Assembly: GCA_039822145.1 (NCBI GenBank)
Contig: JBCBMU010000001.1
Span: forward strand, 116,400 to 180,399
Source: Pseudomonadota bacterium
GTDB taxonomy: Bacteria; Pseudomonadota; Alphaproteobacteria; Caulobacterales; Hyphomonadaceae
Length of the DNA stretch: 64,000 nucleotides
Direction: 5' to 3'
Both the position numbers and the translations under genes were made by a program. The notes beneath the pieces are model-generated. The model made no database searches. It was not told where the DNA came from and saw nothing but the letters and a program-made list of their open reading frames with translations. This document shows positions 2,781 to 64,000 of the stretch, piece by piece. How positions within the stretch are numbered: the first letter of the stretch is position 1; every line of letters begins with the position of its first letter.

Positions 2781-4163
2781 ATGTCAGCCGTCTGGTTCAT
2801 CGGGTTTTCGCTGATTTGGACCGGGCTGTTAGCGGGGGGAGCTCAATTTCTGAGTCGTGAACCCGTTCCAGCTCGATTTGCGCACACAATCTGGCGTGGT
2901 GCAGCCTTCCTGGCATTTCTACCGTGGGTGATTGCCGGCATTTATGCTGTGCTGCCGACGACCCTGGCGACGCCGATTCCGGATATGCCGTATATTGGCG
3001 GGGCTGCCGAAGCGCTCTCGGCCTATGGCGCCGTGCCAACCGCCGCGGACGGGTCAGCGACACCGCTTGTCGGCCTCCTCTTATTCGCTGTGTTGATCGC
3101 AGGATGGGCGGCACGTTTGGGGTGCAATCTGCTGAGCCAAATTCGGTTGCAAGCGCTGAAGCGCCTAGCGACGCCAAATTCCGACGTCAGCGCCGATCGC
3201 TGGGCCAAAGCGCTTGGGCTCAGCCATGTCCCGCAGACCGCGAGCATCCCGCAAGGATCCCCCTTTCTAGCTGGCATGAGCCGACGCACGATTTATTTGC
3301 CGGAAGCGATTACCAATCAAACCGATGCGGACATCATTCTCGCGCATGAATGCACCCATATTGCGCGCGGTGACTTAGTGTCTCGTCCGTTCGAACGTTT
3401 GGTCGCGGATGTCTTCTGGTTTTCGCCCTTTGCGTGGATGATGCGACGCGAGCTCGATTATTGGCGCGAAGCGGCCACGGATGAGCAAACTGCAGCGCTA
3501 ACCGGTGACAATTTTGCGTACGCGCGAGCGCTCGCGAATACCGCGCGTGTGACCCGGCCGATGCCGCAGCAAGCGCTGCCCGTTGCGGCCTTTATTCTGC
3601 CACGGCATGAGACCCTTAAAAAACGGCTCACCCAGTTATTGCAGCGCGATGGGCGCAAGCCACGCCAAGGGATGGCAGTCATGGCTTTAGCGGCAGGCTT
3701 AGTCTTGGCGCCGCTGTCACTGGCGCAGGCGACGAGCGTCACGTCTGGCTCTATTTTCGTGCATCCGATTCTGACCACTGGCTCTAAGATTTCAGCCCCA
3801 TTCGGCGAAGTTTATTATGAGTGGGAAGACAAGAAAAAGTGGCATTATGGAGTCGATCTCGCAGCCAAATACGAAACCCCCATATACGCGCCCGCAAACG
3901 CCAAAGTGCTGTGGAAGGGCAAAAAAGACGATTATGGATATACCGTCGATATTGGCTTTGAAGATGGCCGCAAAATGCGCTTTGCATCCTTGCACAAAAT
4001 CCTGGTCGAGAAGGGGCAGAAGCTAAAAGCCGGCGACCTGATCGGAAAGGTTGGCAAATCTGCCCCCGGTTCGACTGGCCCTCACTTGCATCTGGAAGTC
4101 TATCAGGATGGTGAGCATGTCGATCCTGAGAACGTCAGAGGTTTGGTGCTGTATAAGTCTTAG
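2781..4163 (+). CDS. M56 (BlaR1-type) / M23 metallopeptidase fusion
   Basis: N-terminal TM helices, HECTHIARGD (HExxH..D), a further TM, then an M23 domain with HYGVD and HLH. Confidence 0.9.
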   Translation: MSAVWFIGFSLIWTGLLAGGAQFLSREPVPARFAHTIWRGAAFLAFLPWVIAGIYAVLPTTLATPIPDMPYIGGAAEALSAYGAVPTAADGSATPLVGLLLFAVLIAGWAARLGCNLLSQIRLQALKRLATPNSDVSADRWAKALGLSHVPQTASIPQGSPFLAGMSRRTIYLPEAITNQTDADIILAHECTHIARGDLVSRPFERLVADVFWFSPFAWMMRRELDYWREAATDEQTAALTGDNFAYARALANTARVTRPMPQQALPVAAFILPRHETLKKRLTQLLQRDGRKPRQGMAVMALAAGLVLAPLSLAQATSVTSGSIFVHPILTTGSKISAPFGEVYYEWEDKKKWHYGVDLAAKYETPIYAPANAKVLWKGKKDDYGYTVDIGFEDGRKMRFASLHKILVEKGQKLKAGDLIGKVGKSAPGSTGPHLHLEVYQDGEHVDPENVRGLVLYKS

Positions 4164-25609: not shown

Positions 25610-26242
25610 TTAACTCTCGTCAGCTGGGCGCAGCGCGATCAATTCATCGGTCATGCTATCAATTTTAGCGACCAAAGCATCCACAGACCCTGAATTCTGA
25701 TCGAGGATCGACAAGAATTGGGCGCGCTGTTCAATCGCCAGCCAAATCACGTTGCCGCCATCTTCCAAAGCGACATCAACCACTTGGAACTTGCCGCCGC
25801 GGTTCAACACCCGCCATCTCACCTCAAGTTCGCGTCCATCCGAGCTCAGAATGTCCGTGTCGACAATAGAGTCGCGCGATGTGCGCTCGGTTGAGCCAGT
25901 GACTTCGACATCACGGCCGCGAAATTCGTTGAAGTAAAATTCGTAAACGGCAAGCGCATAGGCGCGGAAAGAGGTCAGATAGGTATCCATCTCTTCCGGC
26001 GTGAAGCGTTTTGAGTATTTGCCAATCACAAATTTCGCGACCGCGTCGAGATTGGTGAACTCATCCATATAGGTTTGGAAACGCTCCCGCCGTTCGTCTG
26101 GCGTCAGGTCGGGCGCGTTCAATGAGGCCAGCACGTCATTGGCGTTCTGGCGCACATATTCTTCTGAATCTGTGTCTGCAAAAGATGGCAAAGCGGCGGC
26201 GGCCAGCATTGCACAAGACAAAATCAATTTACGAGCGAACAT
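25610..26242 (-). CDS. mlaC: MlaC/Ttg2D phospholipid-binding protein
   Basis: Signal peptide; V.WRV...KFQVVDV; Q.RAQF; adjacent to mlaA. Confidence 0.82.
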   Translation of the reverse strand: MFARKLILSCAMLAAAALPSFADTDSEEYVRQNANDVLASLNAPDLTPDERRERFQTYMDEFTNLDAVAKFVIGKYSKRFTPEEMDTYLTSFRAYALAVYEFYFNEFRGRDVEVTGSTERTSRDSIVDTDILSSDGRELEVRWRVLNRGGKFQVVDVALEDGGNVIWLAIEQRAQFLSILDQNSGSVDALVAKIDSMTDELIALRPADES

Positions 26243-26247
26243 ATCGT

Positions 26248-27021
26248 TTATTCCTGTGACTCGAATTCTTCCTCATCCCCGAAATCATAATCATCGAAAT
26301 CGGGCAAATCTTCGAACGGGTCTTCTTGCTCACGGCCGTCACGAATTGCGGCCGCTCTTTGTTGTGTATAATTCCGTCGCAAGGCGACATAGGGTTCAGG
26401 TTGATCGCGGAGGATCTCAACAGCTTCGATCAAATTCTCACGTGCGGCGATCACACCAATTACCCCTGTCGAAATGCGAAATTCATCATCGCCTTCAAAT
26501 TGGGCGTAATTAAGGGGGTTAAACGCAACATCGACACCGCCGCCAGCCAGGTCACGCAAATTCGTCGAGCCGCGCAGCGGAAGCACTAGGTACGGTCCGT
26601 TTGGCACGCCCCAAACACCGAGTGTTTGGCCGAAATCCTCACGGTGTTTCGGCACATCAAACTCAGACGCAACATCAAACAAGCCGGCAATCCCGAAGGT
26701 CGAATTAACGGAGAATCGTGCGAATGTATCGATCGCGGCGCCCGGCTTGCCTTGTAGGACTGTGTTGGCGAACACGACCGGCTGGTTCAAATTCGATAAA
26801 AAATTGGAGACGCCTTGGCGAATGGGCTCATTGGTGACGGTGCGATAGCCCTTGGCCACCGGCTCAAGGACAACCCTGTCGACGCCATCATTGAAGGCAT
26901 AGACCCCGCGGTTCCAACCCTCTAAAGGATCGTACACGGTCGAGGGGTTAGACGCCTCTCCTGTGGATGCACATGCCGTCAACACAATTGCTGATCCTGC
27001 GATCAAACTTGGTAAGCGCAT
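26248..27021 (-). CDS. mlaA: VacJ/MlaA lipoprotein
   Basis: Lipobox LTAC; DPLEGWNR, NSTFGIAGLFD, EDFGQTLGVWG. Confidence 0.92.
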   Translation of the reverse strand: MRLPSLIAGSAIVLTACASTGEASNPSTVYDPLEGWNRGVYAFNDGVDRVVLEPVAKGYRTVTNEPIRQGVSNFLSNLNQPVVFANTVLQGKPGAAIDTFARFSVNSTFGIAGLFDVASEFDVPKHREDFGQTLGVWGVPNGPYLVLPLRGSTNLRDLAGGGVDVAFNPLNYAQFEGDDEFRISTGVIGVIAARENLIEAVEILRDQPEPYVALRRNYTQQRAAAIRDGREQEDPFEDLPDFDDYDFGDEEEFESQE

Positions 27022-27166
27022 AGATCCCATCCTTTCGCCTCGGCATGCGATATGAGGGTGTCTTTGCACGAAATCAAATAAACCTAATGTGAATATTCCG
27101 ACATCTTAATAGACTGTGGCGCTTCGAACACGGTTAACGGGCTCAAATTTGGCTTCAAATTAAGCC

Positions 27167-27196
27167 TTGCAATACATATAAATGATCGTTTATATG
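27167..27196 (+). promoter_or_regulatory. Promoter with palindromic operator (probable SahR site)
   Basis: TTGCAA (27167) with a -10 near 27190; perfect inverted repeat CATATAAA-tgatcg-TTTATATG (27175-27196). Confidence 0.65.
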
Positions 27197-27202
27197 ATTT
27201 CC

Positions 27203-28180
27203 ATGGCGCCGTCACTTGAAACGCTTGTAGATGCATTGAAAGCCGCTGGGGAACCGACCCGAGCGCGCATTTTGGCCTTGTTGCGGCGCGGAGATCTCGC
27301 GGTTGGTGAACTGGTTCAAATTCTTGACCAAAGCCAGCCGCGCCTATCGCACCATCTAAAGACCCTGACCAGCGCAGGCTTGGTTGAGCGCCTGCCAGAA
27401 GGCTCTTGGGTCTTCTATCGGGCACAAACCAAGGGCTGGGCCGGGCGGATCCTGCAAGCCCTGTTCGCAGAGCTAGATATGTCTAAAGCGCCTTTCATCG
27501 AGGACCGCGACGCTTTGGAGAAAGTCCGACAAACGCGCGCGATGTCAGCAGAAGCCTATTTCTCTGAAATCGCTGAAAATTGGGACCGGCTACGGGCGCT
27601 GCATTACCCTGAAACGGCGATTGAACAGGCGATCATATCCTTGGTCGAAACGCAGACATATGACCGCGTCATCGATCTCGGCACGGGGACAGGCCGTATG
27701 CTCGCCCTGCTCGCGCCTTTTGCGCGCGAAGCAGAGGGACTCGACTTGTCGCATCATATGTTGACGGTCGCCCGCGCCAATCTGAACCGCGCTGAGATTC
27801 GCAATGCAAGGGTGCGCCAAGGCGATGTCGCCGAAACGCCGTTCGAGGCCAATAGCGCCGACTTGGTCATGGTTCATCAAGTGTTACACTATCTCGAACG
27901 CCCAGAAGACGTGCTGCACGAGGCGGCGCGTATTTTGAAGCCGGGTGGGCGATTGGTGATTGTCGATTTTGCCCCCCACGATCTCGAATTTCTGCGCGAA
28001 GGCCAGGGGCACCGCCGGCTTGGCATTCGCCAGGACGATATCGCTGCTTGGGCCGTGGAGGCTGGCCTCGACTTGCAAGCGCCAACCCGATTTGATCCCC
28101 CCGCATCACTGGCTCAGGGCCTGAGCGTTCTGATTTGGACGGCGACGCGGCCGGCAAACCAACAGGAGGTCGCGGCATGA
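27203..28180 (+). CDS. sahR: ArsR-HTH plus SAM methyltransferase-fold regulator (SahR-like)
   Basis: SQPRLSHHLK HTH; DLGTGTG; heads the metF-metH operon. Confidence 0.8.
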   Translation: MAPSLETLVDALKAAGEPTRARILALLRRGDLAVGELVQILDQSQPRLSHHLKTLTSAGLVERLPEGSWVFYRAQTKGWAGRILQALFAELDMSKAPFIEDRDALEKVRQTRAMSAEAYFSEIAENWDRLRALHYPETAIEQAIISLVETQTYDRVIDLGTGTGRMLALLAPFAREAEGLDLSHHMLTVARANLNRAEIRNARVRQGDVAETPFEANSADLVMVHQVLHYLERPEDVLHEAARILKPGGRLVIVDFAPHDLEFLREGQGHRRLGIRQDDIAAWAVEAGLDLQAPTRFDPPASLAQGLSVLIWTATRPANQQEVAA

Positions 28181-29088
28181 ACACGCTCGCCGTTGCTGCT
28201 CAACAAGAGACACCCGCCCCCAATGTGTCTTTCGAATTCTTTCCGCCAAAGACGGATAAGATGGAAGCCAAATTATGGGAATCTGTGGCGCGCTTGTCGC
28301 CGATGGCGCCTAAATTTGTCTCGGTCACCTATGGCGCTGGCGGGTCGACGCGGGACCGGACGCAAAGGACCGTTGCGAAAATCGCTCAAGACACGCCGCT
28401 GGCGCCGGCCGCTCATTTGACCTGTGTTGGCGCAACCAAGGACGAAGTGCTTCATGTGGCAAAGGATTTCTGGGCTGCAGGCGTCCGTCATTTGGTCGCC
28501 CTTCGCGGCGATCCTCCGACGGGCATGGGCGAAAAATTCGAGCAACATCCCGGCGGATTTCGCGACAGTGTCGATTTGATTGCGGGCATTCGCGATTATG
28601 ACATCGCGCCCGGCGCGCGGTTTGAAATCAGCGTCTCTTGCTATCCGGAACAACACCCAGATAGCCTTGGCTGGGACCAAGACATCGCCTTCTTGAAAGC
28701 CAAACAAGATGCCGGCGCCGACCGCGCGATTACGCAGTTTTTCTTCGAGCCTGATGTTTATTTGTCATTCTTAGAGCGTGCCCGGGCTGGCGGTGTGACC
28801 ATGCCGATTGTCCCTGGGATCATGCTTCAGCCAAACTTTAACGGCTTGGCGCGGATGGCGAAAGTCGTCGAAGCCTCGGTTCCCGACTGGTTGCACAAGC
28901 TTTATGAGGGCACAGATGATGATCCCGAAACCCGGGAGCTGATCACCGCGAATGTTGCGGTTGAGCTCTGTCACAAACTTTCAGAACAGGGCGTGAATGA
29001 CTTTCACTTCTATACGCTCAATCGCGCCAGTTTGGCCTTGTCGACCTGCCGGATGCTCGGCCTGAAACCGAAGGCGGCGGTGGGATGA
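28177..29088 (+). CDS. metF: 5,10-methylenetetrahydrofolate reductase
   Basis: SFEFFPPKT, SVTYGAGG, AHLTCV, ALRGD, ITQFFF, HFYTLNR. Confidence 0.96.
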   Translation: MNTLAVAAQQETPAPNVSFEFFPPKTDKMEAKLWESVARLSPMAPKFVSVTYGAGGSTRDRTQRTVAKIAQDTPLAPAAHLTCVGATKDEVLHVAKDFWAAGVRHLVALRGDPPTGMGEKFEQHPGGFRDSVDLIAGIRDYDIAPGARFEISVSCYPEQHPDSLGWDQDIAFLKAKQDAGADRAITQFFFEPDVYLSFLERARAGGVTMPIVPGIMLQPNFNGLARMAKVVEASVPDWLHKLYEGTDDDPETRELITANVAVELCHKLSEQGVNDFHFYTLNRASLALSTCRMLGLKPKAAVG

Positions 29089-29510
29089 GGCGCATCTTGG
29101 ACGCTCGACCTCTGCTGCTTTTTACAACCGCGGCGTTGTCGCTCTCGGGAAGCGCTTGCTCGGCTGAGGAAACGGCAAATGCCGAATTGTTGACGTGTTT
29201 GTTGGAGCAAGTGGAGTTTCAATCTCCCGAAGGTGCCCAGCGCTTCATCGTTAATACAGATACGGATGGACCCTGCCGTAAAACAGCAGAGGCTTACAGG
29301 TATTACCAAATGTGTGAGGTCGCGATGACGATGCACGCATCCTCGAACTGTGCGAAGCTACATAACCCGGATGCAAACCGTATTCCCTCCACGCTCAGGG
29401 ATTCTGCCAGCTCGCGCGAAGCGCTTGAATACGCCTATCGTCGAGACTGCGGCGACGACCCAATTCCGACATCCACCCTTCTCGCCTATATAGAAAAGTG
29501 TTCACCATGA
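29085..29510 (+). CDS. Hypothetical Cys-rich secreted protein or lipoprotein
   Basis: Hydrophobic N-terminus ending SAC; ATGA overlaps at both ends. Confidence 0.6.
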   Translation: MRRILDARPLLLFTTAALSLSGSACSAEETANAELLTCLLEQVEFQSPEGAQRFIVNTDTDGPCRKTAEAYRYYQMCEVAMTMHASSNCAKLHNPDANRIPSTLRDSASSREALEYAYRRDCGDDPIPTSTLLAYIEKCSP

Positions 29511-30583
29511 CCGACAGAACTGAACGCATCGCCGCGCTCCACGCCGCCGCCAAAGAGCGCATTCTTCTGCTTGATGGCTCATGGGGCGTGATGTTCCAGC
29601 GCATGGGGCTGGACGAAGAGGATTATCGCGGCAGCCGCTTCACGTCAGAGGCTTATCCCGGGCAAATGAAAGGCAATAATGATATTCTTTGCCTGACCCT
29701 TCCGGAACGCGTGACCGAGCTGCACAATGCCTATTATGCCGCCGGCGCCGATATTTCAGAAACCAATACTTTCTCTGCGACAACCATCGCGCAAGATGAT
29801 TATGCGCTCGATGAGCAATCAGTGACCGATATCAATTTCGAGGGCGCCAAACTTGCCCGCGCCGCCGCCGATGCCTGGACCGAAAAAGAGCCGCACAAAC
29901 CCCGCTTCGCCGCGGGCTCGATCGGGCCGCTCAACAAAATGTTGTCGATGAGTTCGGATGTGAATGATCCAGGCGCCCGGGAAGTCAATTTCGACCAGGT
30001 CTACCAGGCCTATCGCCAGCAAATCAAAGCCCTGAACGAAGGCGGCGTCCATTTATACTTGATCGAAACGATCACTGACACGCTAAATTGTAAGGCGGCG
30101 ATCAAGGCGATTATGGATCTTGAGGCCGAGGGATTAGAGAAACTCCCGATTTGGATTTCGGGAACGATTACGGATCGCTCCGGGCGCACCCTGTCTGGGC
30201 AAACGGTTGAAGCGTTTTGGAATTCGGTGCGCCATGCCAAGCCGTTTGCGATTGGCTTTAATTGCGCCCTCGGGGCGGACCTGATGCGGCCGCACATCGC
30301 CGCTGTGTCACGTGTCGCCGACACGCTGGTCGCAGCGTATCCGAATGCTGGTCTGCCGAATGAAATGGGCCAGTATGATGAAGAACCGCACCAGACCGCG
30401 GGCGAGGTTGGCAATTGGGCCCAGGATGGCATTGTCAACATTCTCGGCGGCTGTTGCGGCACCACGCCTGAGCATATCAATGCAATCTATAAAGCCATCC
30501 AAGGCGTCACCCCGCGCGATCCCGTCGCGACGCAAGACACCATGCGCCTGGCGGGTCTCGAACCGTTTGAACTGGCCAATTAG
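29507..30583 (+). CDS. metH: Methionine synthase, homocysteine-binding half
   Basis: LLDGSWG, ETNTF, NCALG and GGCCG zinc ligands. Confidence 0.92.
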   Translation: MTDRTERIAALHAAAKERILLLDGSWGVMFQRMGLDEEDYRGSRFTSEAYPGQMKGNNDILCLTLPERVTELHNAYYAAGADISETNTFSATTIAQDDYALDEQSVTDINFEGAKLARAAADAWTEKEPHKPRFAAGSIGPLNKMLSMSSDVNDPGAREVNFDQVYQAYRQQIKALNEGGVHLYLIETITDTLNCKAAIKAIMDLEAEGLEKLPIWISGTITDRSGRTLSGQTVEAFWNSVRHAKPFAIGFNCALGADLMRPHIAAVSRVADTLVAAYPNAGLPNEMGQYDEEPHQTAGEVGNWAQDGIVNILGGCCGTTPEHINAIYKAIQGVTPRDPVATQDTMRLAGLEPFELAN

Positions 30584-30601
30584 GAGGGATCAATGTCGCG
30601 C

Positions 30602-31288
30602 TTAGCGAGCATGAAACCAGCCCGTGATGGAGAATCTGGGTTGTCCTGCGAAGGGCGTGACGAAGGTCACCGAGTGGATATGGCGAACGCTGAACAGAGA
30701 CAGCGCGTTAAACCCTGGGCTCCACGCCTCGCGCGGCGTGCCGTCTTGCTGGTAGAATTGCAGCAGGCCGCCCCAATCGGGATGCCAGTTTCGGCAAAAG
30801 CTGAAGACATAAGCGTAGAGCCGCTTTTCATCCGCTGGGTCATCCAAATGACGGGTCAAATAGTTTCCGCGGTCGTATCGGGTGGCTTGCGCATCTGCCC
30901 ACGCAATTCGATTGTCGCCGGTGAGCGTTCTGATTTGCGACAGAACTGGTTCGCTGTTGAGCATTGCGTTAAACTCGCTCAACACGGGATCCGCGGTCCC
31001 GCTCAGGCGGTGGCCGCGATAACAAAACCCGCGCCCCATTCGCGCATCGGCCCACAAACTGTCTTGCAGTTCTTTTCGGGCCTCTTCGCTCAATTGGCTC
31101 ATTTGTTGTTCGGACAGTTCCGCCGACTGACCCTCACGCGCCATCATCCAGTTATAGTCGCGCTGGGCTTCCAACGCGCTCGCGACGCGGTCCGCAGTGT
31201 CGGGATTGAGCGCGTTGATCAAGCGCGCACGGTCGTCGATCCTGAAGGCTGCAGCATTTTCTTGAGAGGCAAATCCAGGGGTCAGCAT
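30602..31288 (-). CDS. 2OG-Fe(II) oxygenase (prolyl-hydroxylase-like)
   Basis: YLTRHLD (HxD), WGGLLQF, HSV, RFSITGW. Confidence 0.88.
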   Translation of the reverse strand: MLTPGFASQENAAAFRIDDRARLINALNPDTADRVASALEAQRDYNWMMAREGQSAELSEQQMSQLSEEARKELQDSLWADARMGRGFCYRGHRLSGTADPVLSEFNAMLNSEPVLSQIRTLTGDNRIAWADAQATRYDRGNYLTRHLDDPADEKRLYAYVFSFCRNWHPDWGGLLQFYQQDGTPREAWSPGFNALSLFSVRHIHSVTFVTPFAGQPRFSITGWFHAR

Positions 31289-31381
31289 TTTTCAATCACC
31301 GTTTGTGAACACTCCTTCTCTCCTCTAAGATTAAGGTCGTTCTCGCAAGCCATTACATCAGGTCAGCCTTAGGAGGTCGGA

Positions 31382-31936
31382 ATGAAAGTCTATGACACAC
31401 TCGATGAGCGGATCATCAGTTTCATTGAGAAGCAGAAAATGTTTTTCGTCGCCTCGGCGCCGCTTTCGGCGGATGGCCATATCAATCTCAGCCCAAAAGG
31501 CTATGACGCGTTCAAAGTGATCGATGACACAACCGTGGCCTGGCTCGACCTAGGCGGCTCCGGCATCGAGACCCAAGCCCATGTTCAAGAGAATGGCCGG
31601 ATCACCATCATGTTCTGTGCCTTTGAAGGCCCGGCAAATATTTTGCGCCTGTTCGGCACCGGCGAAGTGATTAATCCGCATCATCCTGAATGGGACGAGA
31701 TGCTCGGTCTGTTTCCCGGCTTTGAGCGCGCCCGCGGCGTGTTCAAAGTCAAACTCAACCGCATCCAAGACAGTTGCGGTTGGGGTGTGCCATTCATGGA
31801 GTTCAAAGGCGAGCGCGATCAGCTGACCCGCTATGTCGATAATAAATCGCCCGAAGAATGGGTCGAAAGCCGCTACGCGAAAAATGCCGAGAGTATTGAT
31901 GGCCTGAAAGGCTTGGTCAGGGAGGAAGTATCATGA
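31382..31936 (+). CDS. Pyridoxamine 5'-phosphate oxidase-related FMN-binding protein
   Basis: FFVASAP...NLSPKG, GSGIETQAH, IMFCAFEG, DSCGWGVP. Confidence 0.88.
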   Translation: MKVYDTLDERIISFIEKQKMFFVASAPLSADGHINLSPKGYDAFKVIDDTTVAWLDLGGSGIETQAHVQENGRITIMFCAFEGPANILRLFGTGEVINPHHPEWDEMLGLFPGFERARGVFKVKLNRIQDSCGWGVPFMEFKGERDQLTRYVDNKSPEEWVESRYAKNAESIDGLKGLVREEVS

Positions 31937-32286
31937 CTTATATTGATGGATTTATCGCGGCTGTGCCGGTGGAGAATAAAGAGGCCTATCTTGAACATGC
32001 CCGCATCACCGGACCGGTGTTCAAGAAATACGGCGCCCTGCGGATCATGGACAATTGGGGCGACGAAGTGCCGGATGGCGAGACCACCTCCTTCCCGATG
32101 GCGGTGCAAGCCAAGCCCGGCGAAGTCATCGTCTTTTCCTGGATCGAATGGCCCTCCAAGGAGGCCCGCGAGAAAGGCATGGAAGCCTGCATGGCTGACC
32201 CGGTCTTTAACGATGAAGACATGCCGATGCCGTTTGACGGCAAGCGCATGCTGATTGGCAGCTTCGAGACGATTATGGAAGTTTGA
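31933..32286 (+). CDS. DUF1428 (YbaA-like) protein
   Basis: YIDGFIAAVP, WGDEVPDG..TSF..AV, MPFDGKRM. Confidence 0.9.
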   Translation: MTYIDGFIAAVPVENKEAYLEHARITGPVFKKYGALRIMDNWGDEVPDGETTSFPMAVQAKPGEVIVFSWIEWPSKEAREKGMEACMADPVFNDEDMPMPFDGKRMLIGSFETIMEV

Positions 32287-32825
32287 TGTGCGGCATCGAT
32301 CCCGAGTGGGACAATCACTTTTTAGATTTTGGCTATAGTGGTTCGATTAAGAAAGAAGCCATCATCAACTGTTTGGCCGAAATTTACAGAGTGAGCGTCG
32401 AGAATACATTCGATTCGGTACTCGTCGAAGAGCGAGAAATCTCTATTCCTGACCCTGAACCATTGCCGAATTTGATATTTGGTTTCGCTGAGAATCCTTG
32501 TTATTGGATTGGTTTAGATAACTGGGTACATGGGATTTGTCGAAACAATTTTGAGGTCGCTGACCTCGAAATCGCTGTTCGAGTGTGGTTGCGATTTGGA
32601 TGCAGTGTTTCAATCCCGACATTTGAATACGTTGACCTCGACAGCACATGTGACGATAGGCTGATAAGACTTGAAATCACTAATGAGGGACGAGTCTTTG
32701 AAAAAGTAGGCGGCACATCAAATTTTTCCGGTGAAATGAAGAATGCGGGCGCAATTGTTCGCGAGATAAAACCACACGAAAAAGTCTTTCGAGAATTCCA
32801 ACAATTAAAGCACCAATATAGATGA
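32286..32825 (+). CDS. Orphan acidic hypothetical protein, AT-rich
   Basis: Open frame with TGATG and ATGA overlaps; visibly lower GC than its flanks. Confidence 0.6.
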
Positions 32826-35452
32826 CCACAGCCTCCCAGAATTTCGTCAATATTGGCGAACGCACCAATGTCACCGGCTCGGCGCGGTTTCGCAAACTGA
32901 TCGTCAATGGCGATTATGCGACCGCCGTTGAAGTCGCGCGCCAGCAAGTTGAGAACGGCGCCCAGATCATTGATGTGAACATGGATGAGGGCATGCTGGA
33001 CGGCGCTGAGGCGATGACCACATTCCTCAACCTGATCGCTGCTGAACCGGATATTGCCCGCGTCCCGGTGATGATTGATAGCTCCAAATGGGAGGTCATC
33101 GAGGCCGGTCTGAAATGCGTGCAGGGCAAGGCCGTGGTCAACTCGATCTCGATGAAAGAGGGCGAGGATCAATTCCGCGAACAGGCGCGCAAATGCTTGT
33201 CTTATGGCGCTGCTGTTGTGGTCATGGCGTTTGACGAGGTCGGCCAAGCCGACACCGCGTCGCGCAAGATTGAGATCTGCCAACGCGCCTTTAAAATCCT
33301 TACCGAAGAGGTCGGTTTCCCGGCCGAGGACATCATCTTCGATCCAAATATATTCGCCGTCGCAACGGGGATTGAAGAGCACAATAATTACGCCGTCGAT
33401 TTCATCGAAGCGACCAAAATCATTCGCGCGACTTGCCCCGGCTGTCACATCTCGGGCGGGCTCTCAAATGTCAGCTTCTCGTTTCGCGGCAATGAGCCGG
33501 TGCGCCGGGCCATGCACTCTGTGTTTCTTTACCACGCGATCCCAGCCGGCATGGATATGGGCATCGTTAATGCCGGCCAGCTGGACATCTATGACGAGAT
33601 TGAACCCAAGCTGCGCGACTTGGTCGAAGATGTCATCCTCAATCGCAATGATGAGGGCACTGAAGCGCTGGTCGATTATGCCGAACAGTTCCGCGGCCAA
33701 AAAGGCAAAAGCGCTGAGAAGGATATGTCCTGGCGCGAAGCTGGGGTGAATAAACGTCTCGAACATGCCCTGGTCAATGGCATCACCGAGTTCATTGAAG
33801 AAGACACTGAAGAGGCGCGCGCCGCCGCCGCGCGTCCGCTGCACGTGATCGAAGGCCCATTGATGGACGGCATGAACGTCGTCGGCGACTTGTTCGGCTC
33901 TGGTAAGATGTTCTTGCCCCAGGTTGTGAAATCGGCCCGCGTCATGAAAGCGGCTGTGGCCTATCTTGACCCCTATATGGAAGCCGAGAAAGTCGAGCTC
34001 GGCACGGTCGATGCCTCAAATGGCAAAGTCCTGATGGCAACGGTCAAAGGCGACGTGCACGATATCGGCAAGAATATTGTCGGCGTCGTGCTTGCCTGTA
34101 ATGGTTATGAGATTGTCGATATGGGCGTCATGGTCCCGTGCGAAGAGATCCTCGCCAAGGCGGTAGAAGAGAATGTCGATATTATCGGCCTCTCCGGTCT
34201 GATCACGCCAAGCTTGGATGAAATGGTCTATGTCGCGCGCGAGATGCAGCGCACCGGCATGAAACAACCGTTGCTGATCGGCGGCGCCACGACCTCGCCG
34301 GCGCATACAGCCGTCAAGATTGATCCAGCCCGCGACAATGGCCCAACCATTCACGTCACCGATGCGAGCCGCGCCGTGGGCGTCGTCTCGGCCCTGCTCT
34401 CAGATGAAGACCGCCCGCTCTTTGTCGAGACGGCGCAGGCCAAATATCAACGCATGCGCGACAGCCGCGCGGGCGGACCGCCAAAGCCGCGTCACCCGAT
34501 CAATGTTGCCCGCTCGCATGCCCACAAGCTTGAAACCCCGGCCCCACAGGCGCCGAGCTTTACCGGCACGCAAGTGTTCGAGGATTTCGATCTCTCAGAG
34601 CTTGCCCGCTACATTGATTGGACGCCGTACTTTTCGAGCTGGAACCTGGCCGGGCGCTACCCGCAAATCTTAGATGATGAGATTGTCGGCGAAGCGGCCC
34701 GCGATCTGTGGCGCGACACGGAAAACATGATGCAGCAAATCCTCGGTCAGGATTGGTTCAAACCGAAAGCCGTGATTGGCTTTTGGCCCGCACAGCGCGA
34801 CGGCGACGATATCAAGCTCGCGACCGGCGATACGTTCCATACGCTGCGCCAGCAAATGGTCAAAGACAATAGCCGCGCCAATTTCGCGCTGTCTGATTTT
34901 GTCGCTGAGACAGACGATCATATTGGCGGCTTTGCGGTCACCTCAGGTCCAGAAGCTGACCAAATCGCGAAAAAGTTCGAAGCCGAAGGCGATGATTATT
35001 CCGCCATCATGGTCAAAGCGCTCGCCGATCGGTTCGCTGAAGCGATGGCTGAATACATGCACGAACGCGTCCGCAGAGAGCTGTGGGGCTATGCCAGCGA
35101 CGAGGCGCTCTCCGCCGCGGAGCTGATCAAAGAGAGCTATGACGGCATCCGTCCGGCGCCGGGCTATCCGTGCCAGCCCGACCATACTGAAAAAGACACC
35201 CTGTTCCGGCTCTTAGAAGCCGACCGCATCGGCATGGAACTGACGTCAAGTTTCGCCATGACCCCGGCGGCTTCGGTCTCTGGCCTCTATATTGGGCATC
35301 CCGAAAGCGTCTATTTCGCGGTTGGCCGGATCGAGCGCGATCAGGTCGAGGATTATGCCCGCCGCAAAGGCATGGAGCTGCGCGCCGCGGAGCGTTGGCT
35401 CGGGCCGATCTTGAATTATGATCCTGGCGAGGTGGCTGAGGTCGCGGCGTGA
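32822..35452 (+). CDS. metH: Methionine synthase, pterin/cobalamin/reactivation half
   Basis: [26 protein letters not shown]. Confidence 0.96.
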
Positions 35453-35838
35453 GCCAGACCATCGCCAATGTGACGCTCGTCGTCCCGGATTATGACGCTG
35501 CCATCGCTTTCTATGTCGACCAGCTCGGCTTTTCCCTGCTCGAGGATACAACGCTCACCGAAACAAAACGTTGGGTCCGTGTGGCGCCGCGCGGCGCCGA
35601 GACCGCGCTGTTGCTGGCACAGGCGGATGGCGCAGCGCAAGAGGCCGCTATCGGTCATCAAACCGGTGGCCGTGTCGGGTTCTTTCTGCACACGGATGAT
35701 TTCGCCCGCGACTATGCTGCGATGAAAAACAACGGCGTGACCTTCCGCGAAGACCCAAGGCATGAAGCCTATGGCAGCGTTGCGGTGTTCGAAGACCCGT
35801 TCGGAAATCTATGGGATTTAATTGAGCCGGCGACCTAA
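35449..35838 (+). CDS. VOC/glyoxalase family protein
   Basis: [30 protein letters not shown]. Confidence 0.9.
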
Positions 35839-36041
35839 TCTGCGCTCGGCCCGCCGGGTTGAGATGTTTGCGGACGAACAGCGTTCAAAGTGTCGATCAG
35901 AAACTCGCCCGTTTTCTCTTCGTGAAAATCGTCGCGGCGATTGAACCATACGCAATACGCACGATCGGCTTTGACCGCCGCGACGGTCATATTTGGACCG
36001 CCAGATTTAAGTTTGACGACGTCTCCGATTGCAAGACTCAT
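35835..36041 (-). CDS. YodC/DUF2158 family small protein
   Basis: IGDVVKLKSGGPNMTV...CVWF. Confidence 0.85.
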   Translation of the reverse strand: MSLAIGDVVKLKSGGPNMTVAAVKADRAYCVWFNRRDDFHEEKTGEFLIDTLNAVRPQTSQPGGPSAD

Positions 36042-36294
36042 AAGAACTCCGATCTCTTGGAACACGGCCTTCGATAAGCGCCAGTCGATTAAGAGATCTC
36101 TAGTCCCGCCGAAAAGGAAGAGCCCGTTGAGAAAATAGGGACGCTGAGACAATGATGCCGCCGGATCCCGCTTGAATATTTGGATCCCCGCCAGGGCCGA
36201 GCTGCTGCGATCACGGACAGTCCAAACACCGCGAAGTGCAGCGAAATACAGATTGTTTCATGCCCCATTAAGCGGCGCGGGGCGATGATAAGGC

Positions 36295-37677
36295 ATGCGT
36301 TTAAGGATTTGCATTCCACTGGCCACAGGCATGATCGGCGCGCTTGCAGCAATGCCAGCCACCGGACAGGCTTTGTCGCTCGACTTGGAGGCGGTTAAAA
36401 TCGACTCTGTCGGCGCGGCGTTTCAAACGGTTCCGCTGGTCAACACATATGCCAATGCGGTGGTTGTTTGCACGTATAATTTAACCTCGAATGCCAATAA
36501 TGACGCCACGGTCCGGGTCAGCAATATTCAATCCGACAGCTTTGATGTCCGCGTCCAGCGGTTCGAGAACTCATCCGCTTTCACACCGTCTGACGTCCAT
36601 TGTCTGGTCGCTGATGAAGGCGTTCACACCCTGAGCGATGGGCGCGTGATCGAGGCCCGCACCGTGCTTTCCACGGTGACAGCTGGCAATGCCGCGGGCT
36701 GGGGCGCGGCGAACTATACCAATGTCACAGGTCTGGTCACGGGCGGGCATTCTGCGCTGGTAATTTTGGGCCAGGTGATGAGCTTCAATGACAGCCAAGC
36801 CAGCGTATTCACGTCTAATAATTGCAGCAATCGCGGCGCCCCAGCGACGCTGACCAATATCTGTGTGACCAAACATATCGGCATGATCAATGATACTAGG
36901 CTGTCAGAGACGCTGGGTTTTATCATCACCGAACCCGGCACGGGCACTGTGAACCAAGTCGATTATGCTTTTGCCCGCGGCGGCAATTCCGTCGCCGGCA
37001 CCGGCAATACGCCGCCTTATACCTATTCTGTCAGCGGCGATTTTGAGATCGGCGTGGCGACCATGGCAGCGGAGAATGGCGGTAATGGCGGTTGGGCGGT
37101 GCTGTATGGCAATGATCCCTTGCCCAGCAATACGATCAATTTGGCGGTTGAAGAAGAAACCGTCGCCGGCGATACGACCCGTCGCCACATCAATGAAGAG
37201 CTTTATTACGGCGTCTTTCGAAACAATCAGACGGCCATTTTAGATGTGACTAAATCGACCTCGGTTTCACCGCTATCGCCATCTCCCTTCGCCATCCCAG
37301 GCAGCGACATTCTATACACGCTGACCATTGAAAGCACTGGCACGGCGCCGGTTGATGAAGATACGCTCTTCCTGGTCGATACCCTTCCTACTGAAGTGTC
37401 TTTCTATAATGGCGATATTGACGGTGCCGGTCCGGTCGCCGGCAGAGTGCAGTTTGACCCGCTCTCCTCTGGGGTGAGCTTTTCCGAGGCGACGGATTTG
37501 CGCTTCTCAGATGCCGCTATCAAGCCAGCAAACTTATCCGAATGCAGCTATACGCCGTCAAGCGGTTATGACCCAAGCGTCCGGCATGTCTGCTTCGCGC
37601 CAAAAGGCCAATTATTGGGCGGCGCGATCCAACCAAATGCCGAGTTTAGCCTGACCTTCAGGGCACGGATTGATTAA
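36295..37677 (+). CDS. Secreted beta-rich protein with C-terminal DUF11-like domain
   Basis: Signal peptide; Thr/Asn/Gly-rich; VTKS...PGSDILYTLTI.STG...DTLP. Confidence 0.7.
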   Translation: MRLRICIPLATGMIGALAAMPATGQALSLDLEAVKIDSVGAAFQTVPLVNTYANAVVVCTYNLTSNANNDATVRVSNIQSDSFDVRVQRFENSSAFTPSDVHCLVADEGVHTLSDGRVIEARTVLSTVTAGNAAGWGAANYTNVTGLVTGGHSALVILGQVMSFNDSQASVFTSNNCSNRGAPATLTNICVTKHIGMINDTRLSETLGFIITEPGTGTVNQVDYAFARGGNSVAGTGNTPPYTYSVSGDFEIGVATMAAENGGNGGWAVLYGNDPLPSNTINLAVEEETVAGDTTRRHINEELYYGVFRNNQTAILDVTKSTSVSPLSPSPFAIPGSDILYTLTIESTGTAPVDEDTLFLVDTLPTEVSFYNGDIDGAGPVAGRVQFDPLSSGVSFSEATDLRFSDAAIKPANLSECSYTPSSGYDPSVRHVCFAPKGQLLGGAIQPNAEFSLTFRARID

Positions 37678-59873: not shown

Positions 59874-61521
59874 CCGGAACGCAGAAATCAATCTCGGCGG
59901 TAGCGGCATGCGCACCCGGATCGTGTCCATGGGCTTGCTGCTCGTTTTTGGCGTGATCGCGGCCAAGGGCTTAAGTGTGGCAACCAGCGGGTCTGAGGAT
60001 TCAGCTTTACGTCTGGCCAGTTTCGAGGCGCCAGAGCGCCGCGCCGATATTGTCGACCGCAATGGCGATCTGCTGGCCACTTCAGTAACTGCATATTCGG
60101 TCTTTGCTGATCCGCGCGCCATCGGTGATCCCCGCCTCATCGCTGAGGCGCTGGCGACGGCGCTGCCCGATCTAAATATTGAGACGATTACGACGCGTCT
60201 GTCGAACAATGAGCGCGCCTTTGCCTGGATCGAGCGCGGAATCACGCCGCGCCAACGCCAAGCCGTGTTTGACTTGGGCTTAGAGGGTATCGGCTTTCGT
60301 GAGGAGTCGCGCCGGGCCTATCCGCGCAGGACATTGGCCGGCCATTTGCTCGGCTTTGCGGGCGCTGATGGGCAAGGCCTGGGCGGCATAGAATTCGCCA
60401 TGGATGATCGGCTCACCGGCGACGAAAGCCCGCTTTATCTAACCATTGATGCGAATGTGCAGTTCAGCCTTGAGGCCGAATTGGCCGCTGCGGTCGGCGC
60501 CTATGAAGCCGATGCCGGCGCCGGCGTCATTATGGCGGCGCAAACCGGTGAAGTGCTCGGCATGGCGAGTTGGCCGCCGCTTGATCCGCACCGCGCGACG
60601 GAGCTCGCCCAAGACGATCCAGCCCGTCTCGATCGCGCCAGCGGCGCCGTCTATGAGCTTGGATCCGTGTTTAAGCCGCTGACCGTCGCCGGAGCGCTCG
60701 ACGCCGGCGCTATTCGCATGAATGACCGGTTCGATGTTCGCGAGCCGCTACAGATTCGCGGCCGTAAGATTGAAGATGATCATCCAATCGATGGGCGGCC
60801 TACGCCGACCGAAATCATTGCTGACAGCTCAAATATCGGGACGGTCAAAATTGCTTGGCAAATGGGCTCTCGGCGCCAGCAAGAATTCTTGGCCTCTCTT
60901 GGCCTTTTCTCGCGCTCGCCAGTTGAGCTGGCCGGCAGCGCTCGCCCGATTCTGCCTGAACAGTTCGATGAATTGCACAGCGCCACGGCGAGTTATGGGC
61001 ATGGCATAGCGGTTTCGCCGATTGCCTTTGCCGGCGCTTTTGCATCGCTTGCCAATGCTGGTGAAACAGTGGCCCCGACATTGCTCATGGCGCCAGAGCG
61101 CAAACGTCATCCGAAGCGGGTGATGGCGGCGCCAACCGCGAGTCTTGTCGTCAGGATGCTGCGCGAAGCGGTCGACAATGGCACCGGCACGCGGGCGGCC
61201 GTTGGCGGGTACCGTGTGGCCGGGAAGACCGGAACCGCCGAAAAACCTATTCCCGGCGGCTATTCTGCAACCGAGAACATTTGCAGCTTTGCCGCGATAT
61301 TCCCCGCTGACAGCCCTGAATATGTCGTATTGATCGTGCTGGATTCTCCTAAGGCCGGAGAGGCCCGCGGTCGAACCGCAGCGTGGAATGCTGCGCCCAC
61401 GGCTGGACGTGTGATTGAACGGATTGCCCCGATCCTTGGGGTCGAGCCGAGATTTGATGAGCCCGTCCCGTCATCGCCGCGTGTCCGCTCCGTCGCAGAC
61501 AGGAGAGGCACAACGCTATGA
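59863..61521 (+). CDS. ftsI: Penicillin-binding protein 3
   Basis: RADIVDRNG, ELGSVFK (SxxK), SSN, GKTGT. Confidence 0.95.
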   Translation: MASDRNAEINLGGSGMRTRIVSMGLLLVFGVIAAKGLSVATSGSEDSALRLASFEAPERRADIVDRNGDLLATSVTAYSVFADPRAIGDPRLIAEALATALPDLNIETITTRLSNNERAFAWIERGITPRQRQAVFDLGLEGIGFREESRRAYPRRTLAGHLLGFAGADGQGLGGIEFAMDDRLTGDESPLYLTIDANVQFSLEAELAAAVGAYEADAGAGVIMAAQTGEVLGMASWPPLDPHRATELAQDDPARLDRASGAVYELGSVFKPLTVAGALDAGAIRMNDRFDVREPLQIRGRKIEDDHPIDGRPTPTEIIADSSNIGTVKIAWQMGSRRQQEFLASLGLFSRSPVELAGSARPILPEQFDELHSATASYGHGIAVSPIAFAGAFASLANAGETVAPTLLMAPERKRHPKRVMAAPTASLVVRMLREAVDNGTGTRAAVGGYRVAGKTGTAEKPIPGGYSATENICSFAAIFPADSPEYVVLIVLDSPKAGEARGRTAAWNAAPTAGRVIERIAPILGVEPRFDEPVPSSPRVRSVADRRGTTL

Positions 61522-62963
61522 TATTAAGAGAGCTATTTCCCGACTATCAGGGACCTGGTGCAGATCTAGAGGTGACCGGGATGACCGCCGATAGCCGGCG
61601 CGTGCAGCCTGGTTATGTCTTTGCCGCGCTGCAGGGTGTCGCCGCTGACGGCCGGGCCTTCATTCCCGGGGCTTTAGAGGCCGGCGCGATTGCCGTGCTT
61701 GGCGAGAATTTGCCGGATATAGACGGCGGCGCAATGCTCGAAGTGGACAATGCGCGGCTCGCATTGGCGCAAGCAGCTGCGCGTTTTTATCCGCAGCAGC
61801 CGGAGACCTTCGTCGCGATTACCGGCACCAATGGCAAAAGCTCTACTGTCGATTTTTTGCGTCAAATCTGGGACAGCGCAGCGATCCCGGCGGCGAGCCT
61901 GGGAACGCTCGGCGCGATTGGTCCGAGCGGCAGCATAGATTTAGGGCATACAACGCCGGATCCGGTGGCGATCCATGCCACGCTGCAGCAGCTGGCGCGT
62001 GAAGGCGTCACCCACGCCGCGATGGAAGCCTCTTCGCATGGCCTGGCGCAATATCGCCTGGACGGGGTAACCCTGTCAGCGGTGGCGTTCACCAATCTGA
62101 CCCAAGATCACCTCGACTATCACAATACGATGGATGAGTATCGCCAGGCCAAGTTGCGCCTGTTCAGCGAGCTCGCGCCGGCGGGCTGTCCGGCCGTGGT
62201 CAATGCCGATAGTGACCAACGCTTATTCTTTGAGACCGCCGCGCAAGAGGCAGGTCTGTCGCTGATCTCGGTTGGCTGGCGCGGCGCTGATTTGAAAATT
62301 GAAGAGCTGATGCCGAAAGCCACGGGGCAGCGCTTATTTCTCGACTGGCGCGGCGAGAAAGCGGCGATTGATTTGCCGCTGATTGGTGAGTTTCAAGCCT
62401 TGAATGCGCTGACAGCGGCGGGCTTGGCGCTGGCAACGGGGCTCGAATTGCAGGCGGTTGCGACCGGAATGTCGAAATTGCGGCCGGTCAAAGGCCGGCT
62501 TGAATATGTCGGTGAAACCGCAGATGGCGCGGGTGTTTTTGTTGATTATGCCCATACACCGGCGGGCCTGGATGTGTTGATCCGGGCGGCGCGGCCTCAT
62601 ACGGCAGGGGAGCTCGTTATCGTCTTTGGGTGCGGTGGTGATCGTGATCGCGGCAAGCGTCCGCAAATGGGCGAAATCGCCGCGAAACATGCCGACCGCG
62701 TGATTGTCACTGATGACAATCCGCGCAGCGAAGACCCCGCCGCCATCCGCCAAGATGTCCTCGCTGGCGCGCCGGGCGCGGTGGAAATTGGCGACCGCGG
62801 AACCGCGATTTCAGAAGCCATTAAAAGCCTTAAAAAGGGCGACACATTGCTGATTGCGGGCAAGGGTCATGAAACCGGGCAAATTATCGGTGACCGAATT
62901 CTTCCGTTCTCGGATCAAGACGCGGCCCTTGCCGCCCTGAAAGCGGAGGCGGAAATTGCATAG
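61518..62963 (+). CDS. murE: UDP-MurNAc-tripeptide synthetase (meso-DAP type)
   Basis: GTNGKSS, MEASSHG, DYAHTP, FGCGGDRD, DNPR. Confidence 0.97.
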   Translation: MILRELFPDYQGPGADLEVTGMTADSRRVQPGYVFAALQGVAADGRAFIPGALEAGAIAVLGENLPDIDGGAMLEVDNARLALAQAAARFYPQQPETFVAITGTNGKSSTVDFLRQIWDSAAIPAASLGTLGAIGPSGSIDLGHTTPDPVAIHATLQQLAREGVTHAAMEASSHGLAQYRLDGVTLSAVAFTNLTQDHLDYHNTMDEYRQAKLRLFSELAPAGCPAVVNADSDQRLFFETAAQEAGLSLISVGWRGADLKIEELMPKATGQRLFLDWRGEKAAIDLPLIGEFQALNALTAAGLALATGLELQAVATGMSKLRPVKGRLEYVGETADGAGVFVDYAHTPAGLDVLIRAARPHTAGELVIVFGCGGDRDRGKRPQMGEIAAKHADRVIVTDDNPRSEDPAAIRQDVLAGAPGAVEIGDRGTAISEAIKSLKKGDTLLIAGKGHETGQIIGDRILPFSDQDAALAALKAEAEIA

Positions 62964-63382: not shown

Positions 63383-64000
63383 ATGCTGTTTGAGCTTCTG
63401 GCGAACAATGAAGGGCCTTTGCGCCTTTTCAACTATCTAACATTCCGGACCGGCTTGGCGCTGGTCACGTCCTTCCTGGTGACCGTGATTCTGGGCGGTT
63501 GGATGATTGACATGTTGCGGGCGAGACAAGGCAAAGGTCAGCCCATTCGCGACCTTTCTCTCGAAGCGCAAATGGCCAAGCAAGGCACGCCAACAATGGG
63601 CGGCTTCCTGATTTGGATGGGCTTGCTGCTCGGTACGATCCTTTTCGCTGATTTGCGCAATCCGTACATTTGGGTCGTGCTCGCCGTCTCGCTGTCTTAC
63701 GCCTTTCTCGGCTTTTTGGATGATTATGCAAAAGTCACCAAGCAAAGCACGGACGGGGTTTCGGCGCGCCTGCGGCTCGGCACGGAATTTCTGGTCGCTG
63801 CCGCTGCTGGTGCCTTCATTATGGGCCTGCACGGGGCGCATACGCCGCTTGGACATGCCGACTGGGGCGTCCTTAACCCGTTGGCAGAGTGGATTGCCGC
63901 TCTCGCGCCAGAAACCTCAGTTGAGCGCAATGAGGCGTCTTTCTCTGGCGGCGTCGCCATCCCGTTTGTGAATGATTATTTTCTGCCGCTCGGCGGGTTC
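63383..64000 (+). CDS. mraY: Phospho-MurNAc-pentapeptide transferase, 3'-partial (absent from ORF track because it runs off the edge)
   Basis: Hand translation [24 protein letters not shown]...KQGTPTMGG...GFLDDYAK; AGGGGG RBS. Confidence 0.93.

Follow-up and report, generated by a model that had tools for sequence, protein, structure and literature searches.

A long frame antisense to an inverted oxygenase gene is kept open in three lineages and may relay translation across a split methionine synthase operon

The met operon at positions 27182-35838 of a 64,000-nucleotide (nt) stretch of Hyphomonadaceae DNA (contig JBCBMU010000001.1; the whole stretch is called the window) contains, between the two parts of a split B12-dependent methionine synthase, a 2-oxoglutarate (2OG)-Fe(II) oxygenase gene on the opposite strand. 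On the operon strand, a single open reading frame (ORF) of 259 codons, here called the bridge ORF, runs antisense through the whole oxygenase gene, from the stop codon of MetH-N to the start of the PNPOx-like gene that precedes MetH-C. We found that this frame is free of stop codons in three lineages and that its start and stop are kept, whereas its peptide has changed without constraint. The best single explanation, to which we give about an even chance, is that a product-less relay ORF would keep the operon mRNA translated across the inserted, inverted gene.

Results

The bridge ORF and its junctions

The preliminary description of this window had reported two TAGGAGG-N5-ATG motifs and a 259-codon ORF that covers the whole oxygenase, abuts genes at both ends and lies in codon register with it. 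All of these features were confirmed (Table 1). At the left junction, the MetH-N stop TAG (30581-30583) is followed after 9 nt by the bridge ATG at 30593, with GGAGG 5 nt upstream of this ATG. At the right junction, the bridge stop TAG sits 9 nt before the PNPOx-like ATG at 31382, within the Shine-Dalgarno (SD) sequence of that gene. These are junctions of the coupled type, TAG-N9-ATG with GGAGG at both ends in the window; the left SD is absent from one relative, L086.

To count the motif, we searched both strands of the whole 64-kb window for TAGGAGG-N5-ATG and compared the result with 100 shuffles. Only these two sites were found, against 0.03 expected, and two or more sites occurred in 0/100 shuffles. 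One frame is shared by the MetH-N stop, both ends of the bridge (ATG and TAG) and the PNPOx ATG, and the motifs are spaced by 789 nt (3x263). The codons of the bridge and of the oxygenase are identical triplets, because 31286-30593 = 693 = 3x231. The frame remains open past the oxygenase start for 27 codons (81 nt), where the preliminary count had been about 28.

TTAGGAGG plus AATG is repeated directly, 789 nt apart. Besides the oxygenase, the 789-nt segment holds only the 81 nt upstream of it; neither mobility genes nor terminal inverted repeats were found there.

Conservation across lineages

Relatives were collected as 80 loci (L001-L080) found with MetH-N, and further carriers of the oxygenase were added by an oxygenase protein search and contig look-ups. 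Among the 80 loci, the oxygenase is present in L026 only, at the same site and in the same orientation. The added carriers are L085, with 79% amino acid (aa) identity; L086-L091, with 75%, which are six contigs drawn from several samples; and the strain L096, at 96% identity. The layout MetH-N (plus), oxygenase (minus), PNPOx...MetH-C (plus) is common to the window, L085, L086-L091, L096 and L026. A contig of run X17 also covers the whole region, with flat depth like that of DNA and with no strand information; it is 98% identical to L085 and is therefore not a new lineage. The comparison below covers three lineages: the window with strain L096, L085 with the X17 contig, and L086-L091.

Since the window was chosen for being open, the fair test of the frame is its conservation in the other lineages. 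Neither L085 nor L086 has an in-frame stop across the bridge. In all three lineages the bridge ATG is found 9 nt after the MetH-N TAG, though the flanking bases are mostly changed in L086. The terminal TAG is likewise found in all three, where it lies 81 nt beyond the start of the oxygenase, overlaps the PNPOx SD and leaves 9 nt to the PNPOx ATG. No insertion or deletion occurs in either non-coding flank of the oxygenase.

The divergence over which these features were kept is large, with between half and complete turnover of synonymous sites. At fourfold degenerate sites the window oxygenase differs from that of L085 by 0.39 and from that of L086 by 0.60 (synonymous divergence, dS, 0.70 and ~2.2). 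The MetH-N flank of L086, at 0.58, is in line with its oxygenase. The left junction, which is TAGGAGGGATCTATG in both L085 and the X17 contig, shows 2 differences in 21 nt between the window and L085, whereas ~37% would be expected at neutral sites. The right junction of L086 is TAGGAGA/G-N5-ATG, and the L086 repeats share TAGG...ATG only.

We used a column-wise model on the three-taxon tree to calculate the probability that L085 and L086 are both open given that the window is open. This probability was 0.0005-0.004 under a null of genome codon usage and 0.004-0.02 under a null of operon-scaled usage.

Avoidance of antisense stop codons in the oxygenase

In the in-register frame, an antisense stop requires TTA, CTA or TCA in the oxygenase. 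These three make up 1.88% of the 19,604 codons of the window, which gives 4.7 expected in a gene with 20 Leu and 17 Ser. The oxygenase has none (P(0) 0.007, or 0.015 when AGY serines are left out). None is found in L085 or L086 either, where genome usage predicts 5.1 and 4.8. Relative to expectation, the remaining A-ending codons of the oxygenase are used 1.34-fold in the window, 1.26-fold in L085 and 1.11-fold in L086. This indicates that A-ending codons are not avoided in general.

For comparison we took genes with at least 3.5 expected antisense stops from the window gene calls and from 27 related loci. The window has 40 such genes, and the oxygenase is the only one with 0 or 1. None of the 140 such genes in the related loci is stop-free, so that the two sets together give 0/179 comparable genes. 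Five oxygenase homologues outside the three lineages carry 1-3 antisense-stop codons each. A whole gene of this size without an antisense stop is exceptional. Chance could account for the length of the bridge by itself, since larger genes of the window contain in-register open runs of 311, 239 and 233 codons. The earlier caution about the frequency of shadow ORFs in this frame is valid in general but not for this 57% G+C genome.

Selection on the two frames

The ratio of nonsynonymous to synonymous divergence (dN/dS) was 0.17 and 0.07 in the oxygenase frame and 1.14, 1.24 and 1.4 in the bridge frame. The bridge peptide is 64% and 46% identical to those of L085 and L086, compared with 79% and 75% for the oxygenase. 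Between the window and L096, 7 of 11 substitutions fall at third positions of the oxygenase, which are first positions of the bridge. These values indicate that the oxygenase is the member of the overlapping pair selected at the protein level. Its synonymous divergence (0.39) is about that of its neighbours MetH-N (0.41) and PNPOx (0.35), with no extra synonymous constraint.

The bridge peptide, described at the outset as resembling no family, indeed had no match in Pfam or NCBIfam. When 5.8 billion proteins were searched with the peptide and with a three-lineage profile, the sole homologue was the 97% variant in strain L096. The peptide is rich in R/A/V/S/L/G, a composition typical of an antisense frame. 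Given dN/dS above 1 and the lack of homologues, plus-strand selection, if any, would act on openness and on the start and stop positions, not on a protein.

In the L096 assembly, automatic annotation called the bridge ORF as a gene at 3001-3780 (P0121) and left the opposite-strand oxygenase uncalled. We considered this reversed assignment, with the plus ORF as the real gene and the oxygenase as its shadow. It was ruled out by the PF13661 match (E 5e-23), the 548 homologues found in the oxygenase protein search and the oxygenase dN/dS of 0.07-0.17.

The oxygenase as an insertion

About 26 Henriciella-like genomes among the 80 loci have MetH-N, ~30 nt and then the PNPOx gene, without the oxygenase. 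In Brevundimonas, MetH-N directly abuts MetH-C. Oxygenase-less species differ from the window by 0.40-0.48 at fourfold sites, compared with 0.41 for L085, and L010, the nearest relative of L086, also lacks the oxygenase. This patchy distribution indicates that the oxygenase is an insertion into a pre-existing operon.

Compact empty sites of the form TAGGAG-N6-ATG were found in L011 and in run X9 and X11 contigs that jump from 30586 to 31382. Such sites could represent either the ancestral target or the outcome of excision between the repeats. Among relatives without the oxygenase, those least diverged at synonymous sites have a non-compact junction, consisting of the MetH-N stop, ~20 nt and AAGGAG, and simple duplication does not follow from them. 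At the PNPOx start, oxygenase-less relatives mostly have AAGGAG and no TAG.

A second, independent inverted insertion in this operon was sought among the 80 loci, and none was found. Inserts of at least ~430 nt between the metH halves of relatives are all on the same strand (GGACT, RlaP, methyltransferase, DUF4259 and CMD genes). In Hyphomonadaceae this interval is a hot spot where small genes of unrelated kinds are found, all co-oriented and often with 4-nt overlaps. PNPOx-like and DUF1428 genes are also among them, DUF1428 being present twice in L002, L020 and L042.

Homologues of the oxygenase elsewhere adjoin unrelated genes for SspB, YggT and an aldo-keto reductase. The closest solved structures are 4iw3, a Pseudomonas putida prolyl hydroxylase that modifies EF-Tu, and 4nhx, human OGFOD1, which hydroxylates ribosomal protein S23 (E ~1e-5, C-terminal fold only). 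A scan of metagenome contigs with the oxygenase returned matches of ~31% identity only, which were of no use.

Operon setting

The met operon is a chain of ten plus-strand ORFs, the bridge included, in a window of 56.9% G+C from a marine, Henriciella-like member of the Hyphomonadaceae. Its features are listed in Table 1.

Table 1. Features of the met operon and of the bridge region (positions in the window).
Feature	Position	Strand	Remarks
ArsR-type helix-turn-helix (HTH) fused to S-adenosylmethionine-dependent methyltransferase (ArsR-MT), first gene	27182-28180	+	Pfam HTH_5, Methyltransf_11; TGA overlaps next ATG (ATGA)
Methylenetetrahydrofolate reductase (metF, MTHFR)	28177-29088	+	PF02219, E 8.5e-90; likely true start ATG 28177 in ATGA overlap
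141-aa ORF	29085-29510	+	no family match; ATGA overlap with both neighbours; also called in strain L096
MetH-N, homocysteine S-methyltransferase domain of split B12-dependent methionine synthase	29507-30583	+	PF02574, E 1.6e-89; 80 orthologous loci
Left junction TAGGAGG-N5-ATG, TAGGAGGGATCAATG	30581-30595	+	MetH-N stop, GGAGG Shine-Dalgarno and bridge ATG
Bridge (relay) ORF	30593-31372	+	259 codons, ATG start, in-register antisense to oxygenase
2OG-Fe(II) oxygenase, prolyl-hydroxylase-like (Tpa1/OGFOD1/PPHD) type, 228 aa	30602-31288	-	PF13661/PF13640, E 5e-23
Spacer, oxygenase start to PNPOx-like start, 93 nt	31289-31381	.	bridge frame runs to 31372
Candidate sigma-70-like promoter TTGTGA-N17-TAAGAT	31303-31331	+	read by eye; 8/12 consensus positions, below promoter scan threshold
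Right junction TAGGAGG-N5-ATG, TAGGAGGTCGGAATG	31370-31384	+	bridge stop, Shine-Dalgarno and PNPOx-like start
PNPOx-like flavoprotein gene	31382-31936	+	PF01243; TIGR04025 match weak; ATGA overlap with next gene
DUF1428 gene	31933-32286	+	PF07237, E 7e-42
Low-G+C 180-aa ORF	32283-32825	+	GC 0.43, third-position GC (GC3) 0.425; no family match; both junctions overlaps
MetH-C, pterin-binding, B12-binding and reactivation domains	32822-35452	+	PF00809, PF02607, PF02310, PF02965
VOC/glyoxalase-like ORF, 129 aa, last coupled	35449-35838	+	start overlaps MetH-C stop as GTGA

The seven other junctions of the operon are ATGA, GTGA or TGATG overlaps, the exceptions being the two that flank the bridge. 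Over 8.6 kb, the longest untranslated gap is 9 nt if the bridge is counted and 798 nt if it is not. At the convergent MetH-N/oxygenase junction (30540-30660) we found no terminator-like hairpin (z = -1.0), and an Rfam scan of 26000-36500 gave no match. Along the oxygenase, plus-strand GC skew goes both ways (+0.10 to -0.16) and gives no clear C-rich signature like that of a Rho utilization (rut) site.

Other parts of the operon have histories of their own. The 180-aa ORF is found in none of the 80 relatives and not in the 96%-identical strain L096, in which ~130 nt occupy the place. It is therefore a very recent, strain-specific insertion despite its overlapping junctions. Divergence between the window and L085 is uneven at fourfold sites, being 0.57-0.59 in ArsR-MT and MTHFR and 0.35-0.41 in MetH-N, the oxygenase and PNPOx. 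Such a step might mark a recombination breakpoint within the operon. The same order of ArsR-MT, MTHFR, MetH-N and MetH-C is found in genomes labelled Rhodothermales/Bacteroidota, complete chromosomes among them (L035, L038, L048, L051, L052, L054, L056, L058, L060, L062, L064, L068 and L073). Their MetH-N is 75-83% identical to the window protein, which suggests that the operon moved across phyla, between Alphaproteobacteria and Rhodothermales/Bacteroidota.

Near the end of the window, a stop-free minus-strand "gene" at 63437-63856 was examined and rejected, since it shadows mraY, a gene whose plus frame continues past the end of the window. The ~420 nt between the single Mur ligase gene (61518-62963) and mraY hold a 145-aa ORF with GC3 0.46 and no Pfam match. 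Division and cell wall (dcw) clusters usually carry a second ligase gene, murF, between those positions.

Discussion

Starting from the anatomy of the site, we infer that transcription reads through the inverted gene and that the bridge is translated. Ribosomes ending MetH-N at TAG 30581 would reinitiate at ATG 30593, helped by the GGAGG just upstream, and would translate the 259-codon frame antisense through the oxygenase. They would terminate at TAG 31370, inside the PNPOx SD, and PNPOx...MetH-C would stay coupled to MetH-N through translation of the bridge. Without such translation ~800 nt of antisense RNA would be naked; with it, the stretch would be shielded from Rho-dependent termination, from decay, or from both; polarity of this kind is established in Proteobacteria. 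The selected trait would be the unbroken translation of the operon mRNA, and the peptide would have no function of its own.

A ribosome relay had been one of two explanations offered in the preliminary description. The support we can add to it is comparative: the frame, its ATG and its TAG are kept, the three stop-generating codons are avoided, the peptide is free to change, and the other operon junctions are coupled. The absence of a terminator-like structure at the convergent junction and the co-orientation of the other genes gained between the metH halves also speak for it. The broader proposition goes further. It holds that a long product-less frame, antisense in a functional gene, may be kept stop-free and abutting its neighbours so that ribosomes cover the mRNA across an inverted insert. 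In this way a noncontiguous operon could be tolerated by a proteobacterium with coupled transcription and translation, and the inverted gene would be limited in its synonymous codons. We put forward this general form tentatively, at a little under an even chance.

Several points weigh against the relay. The left junction of L086 is TAGGTCGCGGCGATG, in which the SD is lost and the ATG is kept. In L026 the frame contains a TGA at 7132 and a TAG at 7786 and is open for ~217 codons between the two; the MetH-N stop of L026 is followed by neither an ATG nor an SD. As L026 has the same layout, the bridge is not indispensable. Frame-breaking stops in close orthologues had been listed beforehand among the findings that would count against the relay, and they occur in this one orthologous locus. 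Conservation of frame and ribosome-binding site, proposed earlier as a check, holds for the open frame in L085 and L086-L091, but not for L026 with its stops or for the SD of L086. The oxygenase of L026 (7105-7791) has 59% aa identity to that of the window and 0.71 fourfold differences, compared with 0.48-0.52 and 84-85% aa identity for its MetH-N and PNPOx flanks. Being more diverged than its flanks, it may have a different history; it could be an allele of long standing, the flanks could have recombined, or the gene could have been acquired separately at this site.

The spacer raises a further objection. It does not vary in length among the three lineages, and the window differs from L085 at 7/93 positions, compared with 39% of fourfold sites. 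High conservation of this kind is also expected of a divergent regulatory region. A separate promoter before 31382 had been named beforehand as a finding that would count against the relay, and the spacer does contain a conserved TTGTGA-N17-TAAGAT, albeit below the scan threshold. Both hexamers are kept in the three lineages while the early spacer is variable, and the element is not recognisable in L026. It could drive PNPOx...MetH-C independently. Under the most lenient null of the column-wise model, in which usage was taken from outgroup homologues, several from genomes of much higher GC3, the probability rises to 0.03-0.08. The sample consists of three related lineages only, and that Rho is present in this host and acts as proposed is assumed from general knowledge of Caulobacterales.

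The main rival is a by-product explanation, which we regard as possible but less than likely. Here the plus ORF would be a shadow, untranslated or irrelevantly translated; the repeat would be left from insertion or excision at a compact stop/SD; and the spacer promoter, having arrived with the cassette, would drive PNPOx...MetH-C. The frame is the in-register one, in which antisense stops need the rarer codons TTA, CTA and TCA, and other long open runs exist in the window. The absence of the oxygenase from ~26 close relatives, the compact empty sites in L011 and the X9/X11 contigs, the promoter-like hexamers kept beside a variable spacer, the stops and missing start of L026, the missing SD of L086 and the lenient null all agree with it. 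On the other side, zero antisense stops in three lineages with normal or high use of A-ending codons, and 0/179 comparable genes stop-free, are not what a shadow predicts, and comparison of the sequences disfavours an ordinary shadow ORF. The ATG and terminal TAG are kept at near-saturating divergence, and the candidate promoter matches only 8/12 consensus positions. The second explanation in the preliminary description, the scar of an inverted insertion, is also supported in part. The oxygenase is an insertion by its distribution, and compact empty sites exist. A scar alone leaves the kept SD and ATG unexplained, since the insertion predates the split of the window and L086 (dS ~2) and the left SD is still perfect in the window and L085.

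It is unlikely, in our estimate, that the frame is translated and kept open for some purpose other than relief of polarity, such as unwinding the sense/antisense duplex to tune the oxygenase in an excludon-like manner, or protection against RNase III/E. The same conservation would serve this explanation as serves the relay, and noncontiguous operons have been described as devices of mutual antisense regulation; the sequence gives nothing that separates it from an anti-polarity role. A genuine antisense overlapping gene with a functional 259-aa product is very improbable: for all its length, strong SD, ATG and call as P0121 in L096, and despite documented translated antisense genes in Pseudomonas and E. 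coli (PMC8850804, PMC9927249), the bridge has a dN/dS of 1.14-1.4 with identity down to 46% and so no sign of purifying selection, imposes no excess synonymous constraint on the oxygenase relative to its neighbours, and has an antisense-typical composition with no family match and no homologue beyond the strain variant.

The arrangement resembles the noncontiguous operon described in Staphylococcus aureus (menE-menC-MW1733-ytkD-MW1731; PMC11034616). In both, co-directional linked genes are split by one opposite-strand gene, the mRNA, if read through, carries the antisense of the inverted gene, and the structure probably arose by insertion into an operon. In our case the flanking genes are functionally related, being two halves of MetH, and were ancestrally contiguous, as the ~26 relatives and Brevundimonas show. 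Noncontiguous operons have been described in Firmicutes, and their antisense stretch was taken as untranslated, whereas here the stretch is a start-to-stop ORF that abuts both neighbours and is open in three lineages. An untranslated antisense stretch is a puzzle for coupled transcription and translation, and its tolerance has been explained by uncoupled "runaway" transcription in Firmicutes/Gram-positives (PMC11034616).

The junctions of the bridge are like those of translational coupling and of protection from Rho polarity (ATGA junctions; upstream ORFs such as toiL, PMC12121999): a stop and a start lie within 9 nt, the SD overlaps the stop, and the role proposed is for the act of translation and not for its product. 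The known product-less translated ORFs that act against Rho termination are short 5' leaders (PMC12121999), whereas the bridge has 259 codons, is internal to an operon and is antisense in a functional gene. As a long ORF embedded antisense in an annotated gene, it is also like olg1/olg2 of Pseudomonas aeruginosa (PMC8850804) and genes of E. coli O157:H7 (PMC9927249). Those genes are reported to be translated, with a product under purifying selection, whereas the bridge product appears neutral (dN/dS > 1) and only openness and boundaries are kept. Shadow ORFs of the in-register antisense frame, such as that of mraY at 63437-63856 (minus) in this window, have the same frame relation. They follow codon usage and are not kept across synonymous turnover, whereas in each of three lineages the bridge keeps its start and stop and has 0 stops where 4-5 would be expected. 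The literature we searched contained no account of a long antisense relay ORF inside an operon.

The region also illustrates an annotation trap, since the public L096 assembly took the bridge frame as a gene and missed the real oxygenase. Were the frame translated, it would solve the puzzle of noncontiguous operons in a different way, in a group, the Proteobacteria, to which the uncoupling answer is not obviously available. It would also be a case of selection on the openness of a frame rather than on its product, in which the synonymous choice of a gene, with no TTA, CTA or TCA, would be set by the opposite strand.

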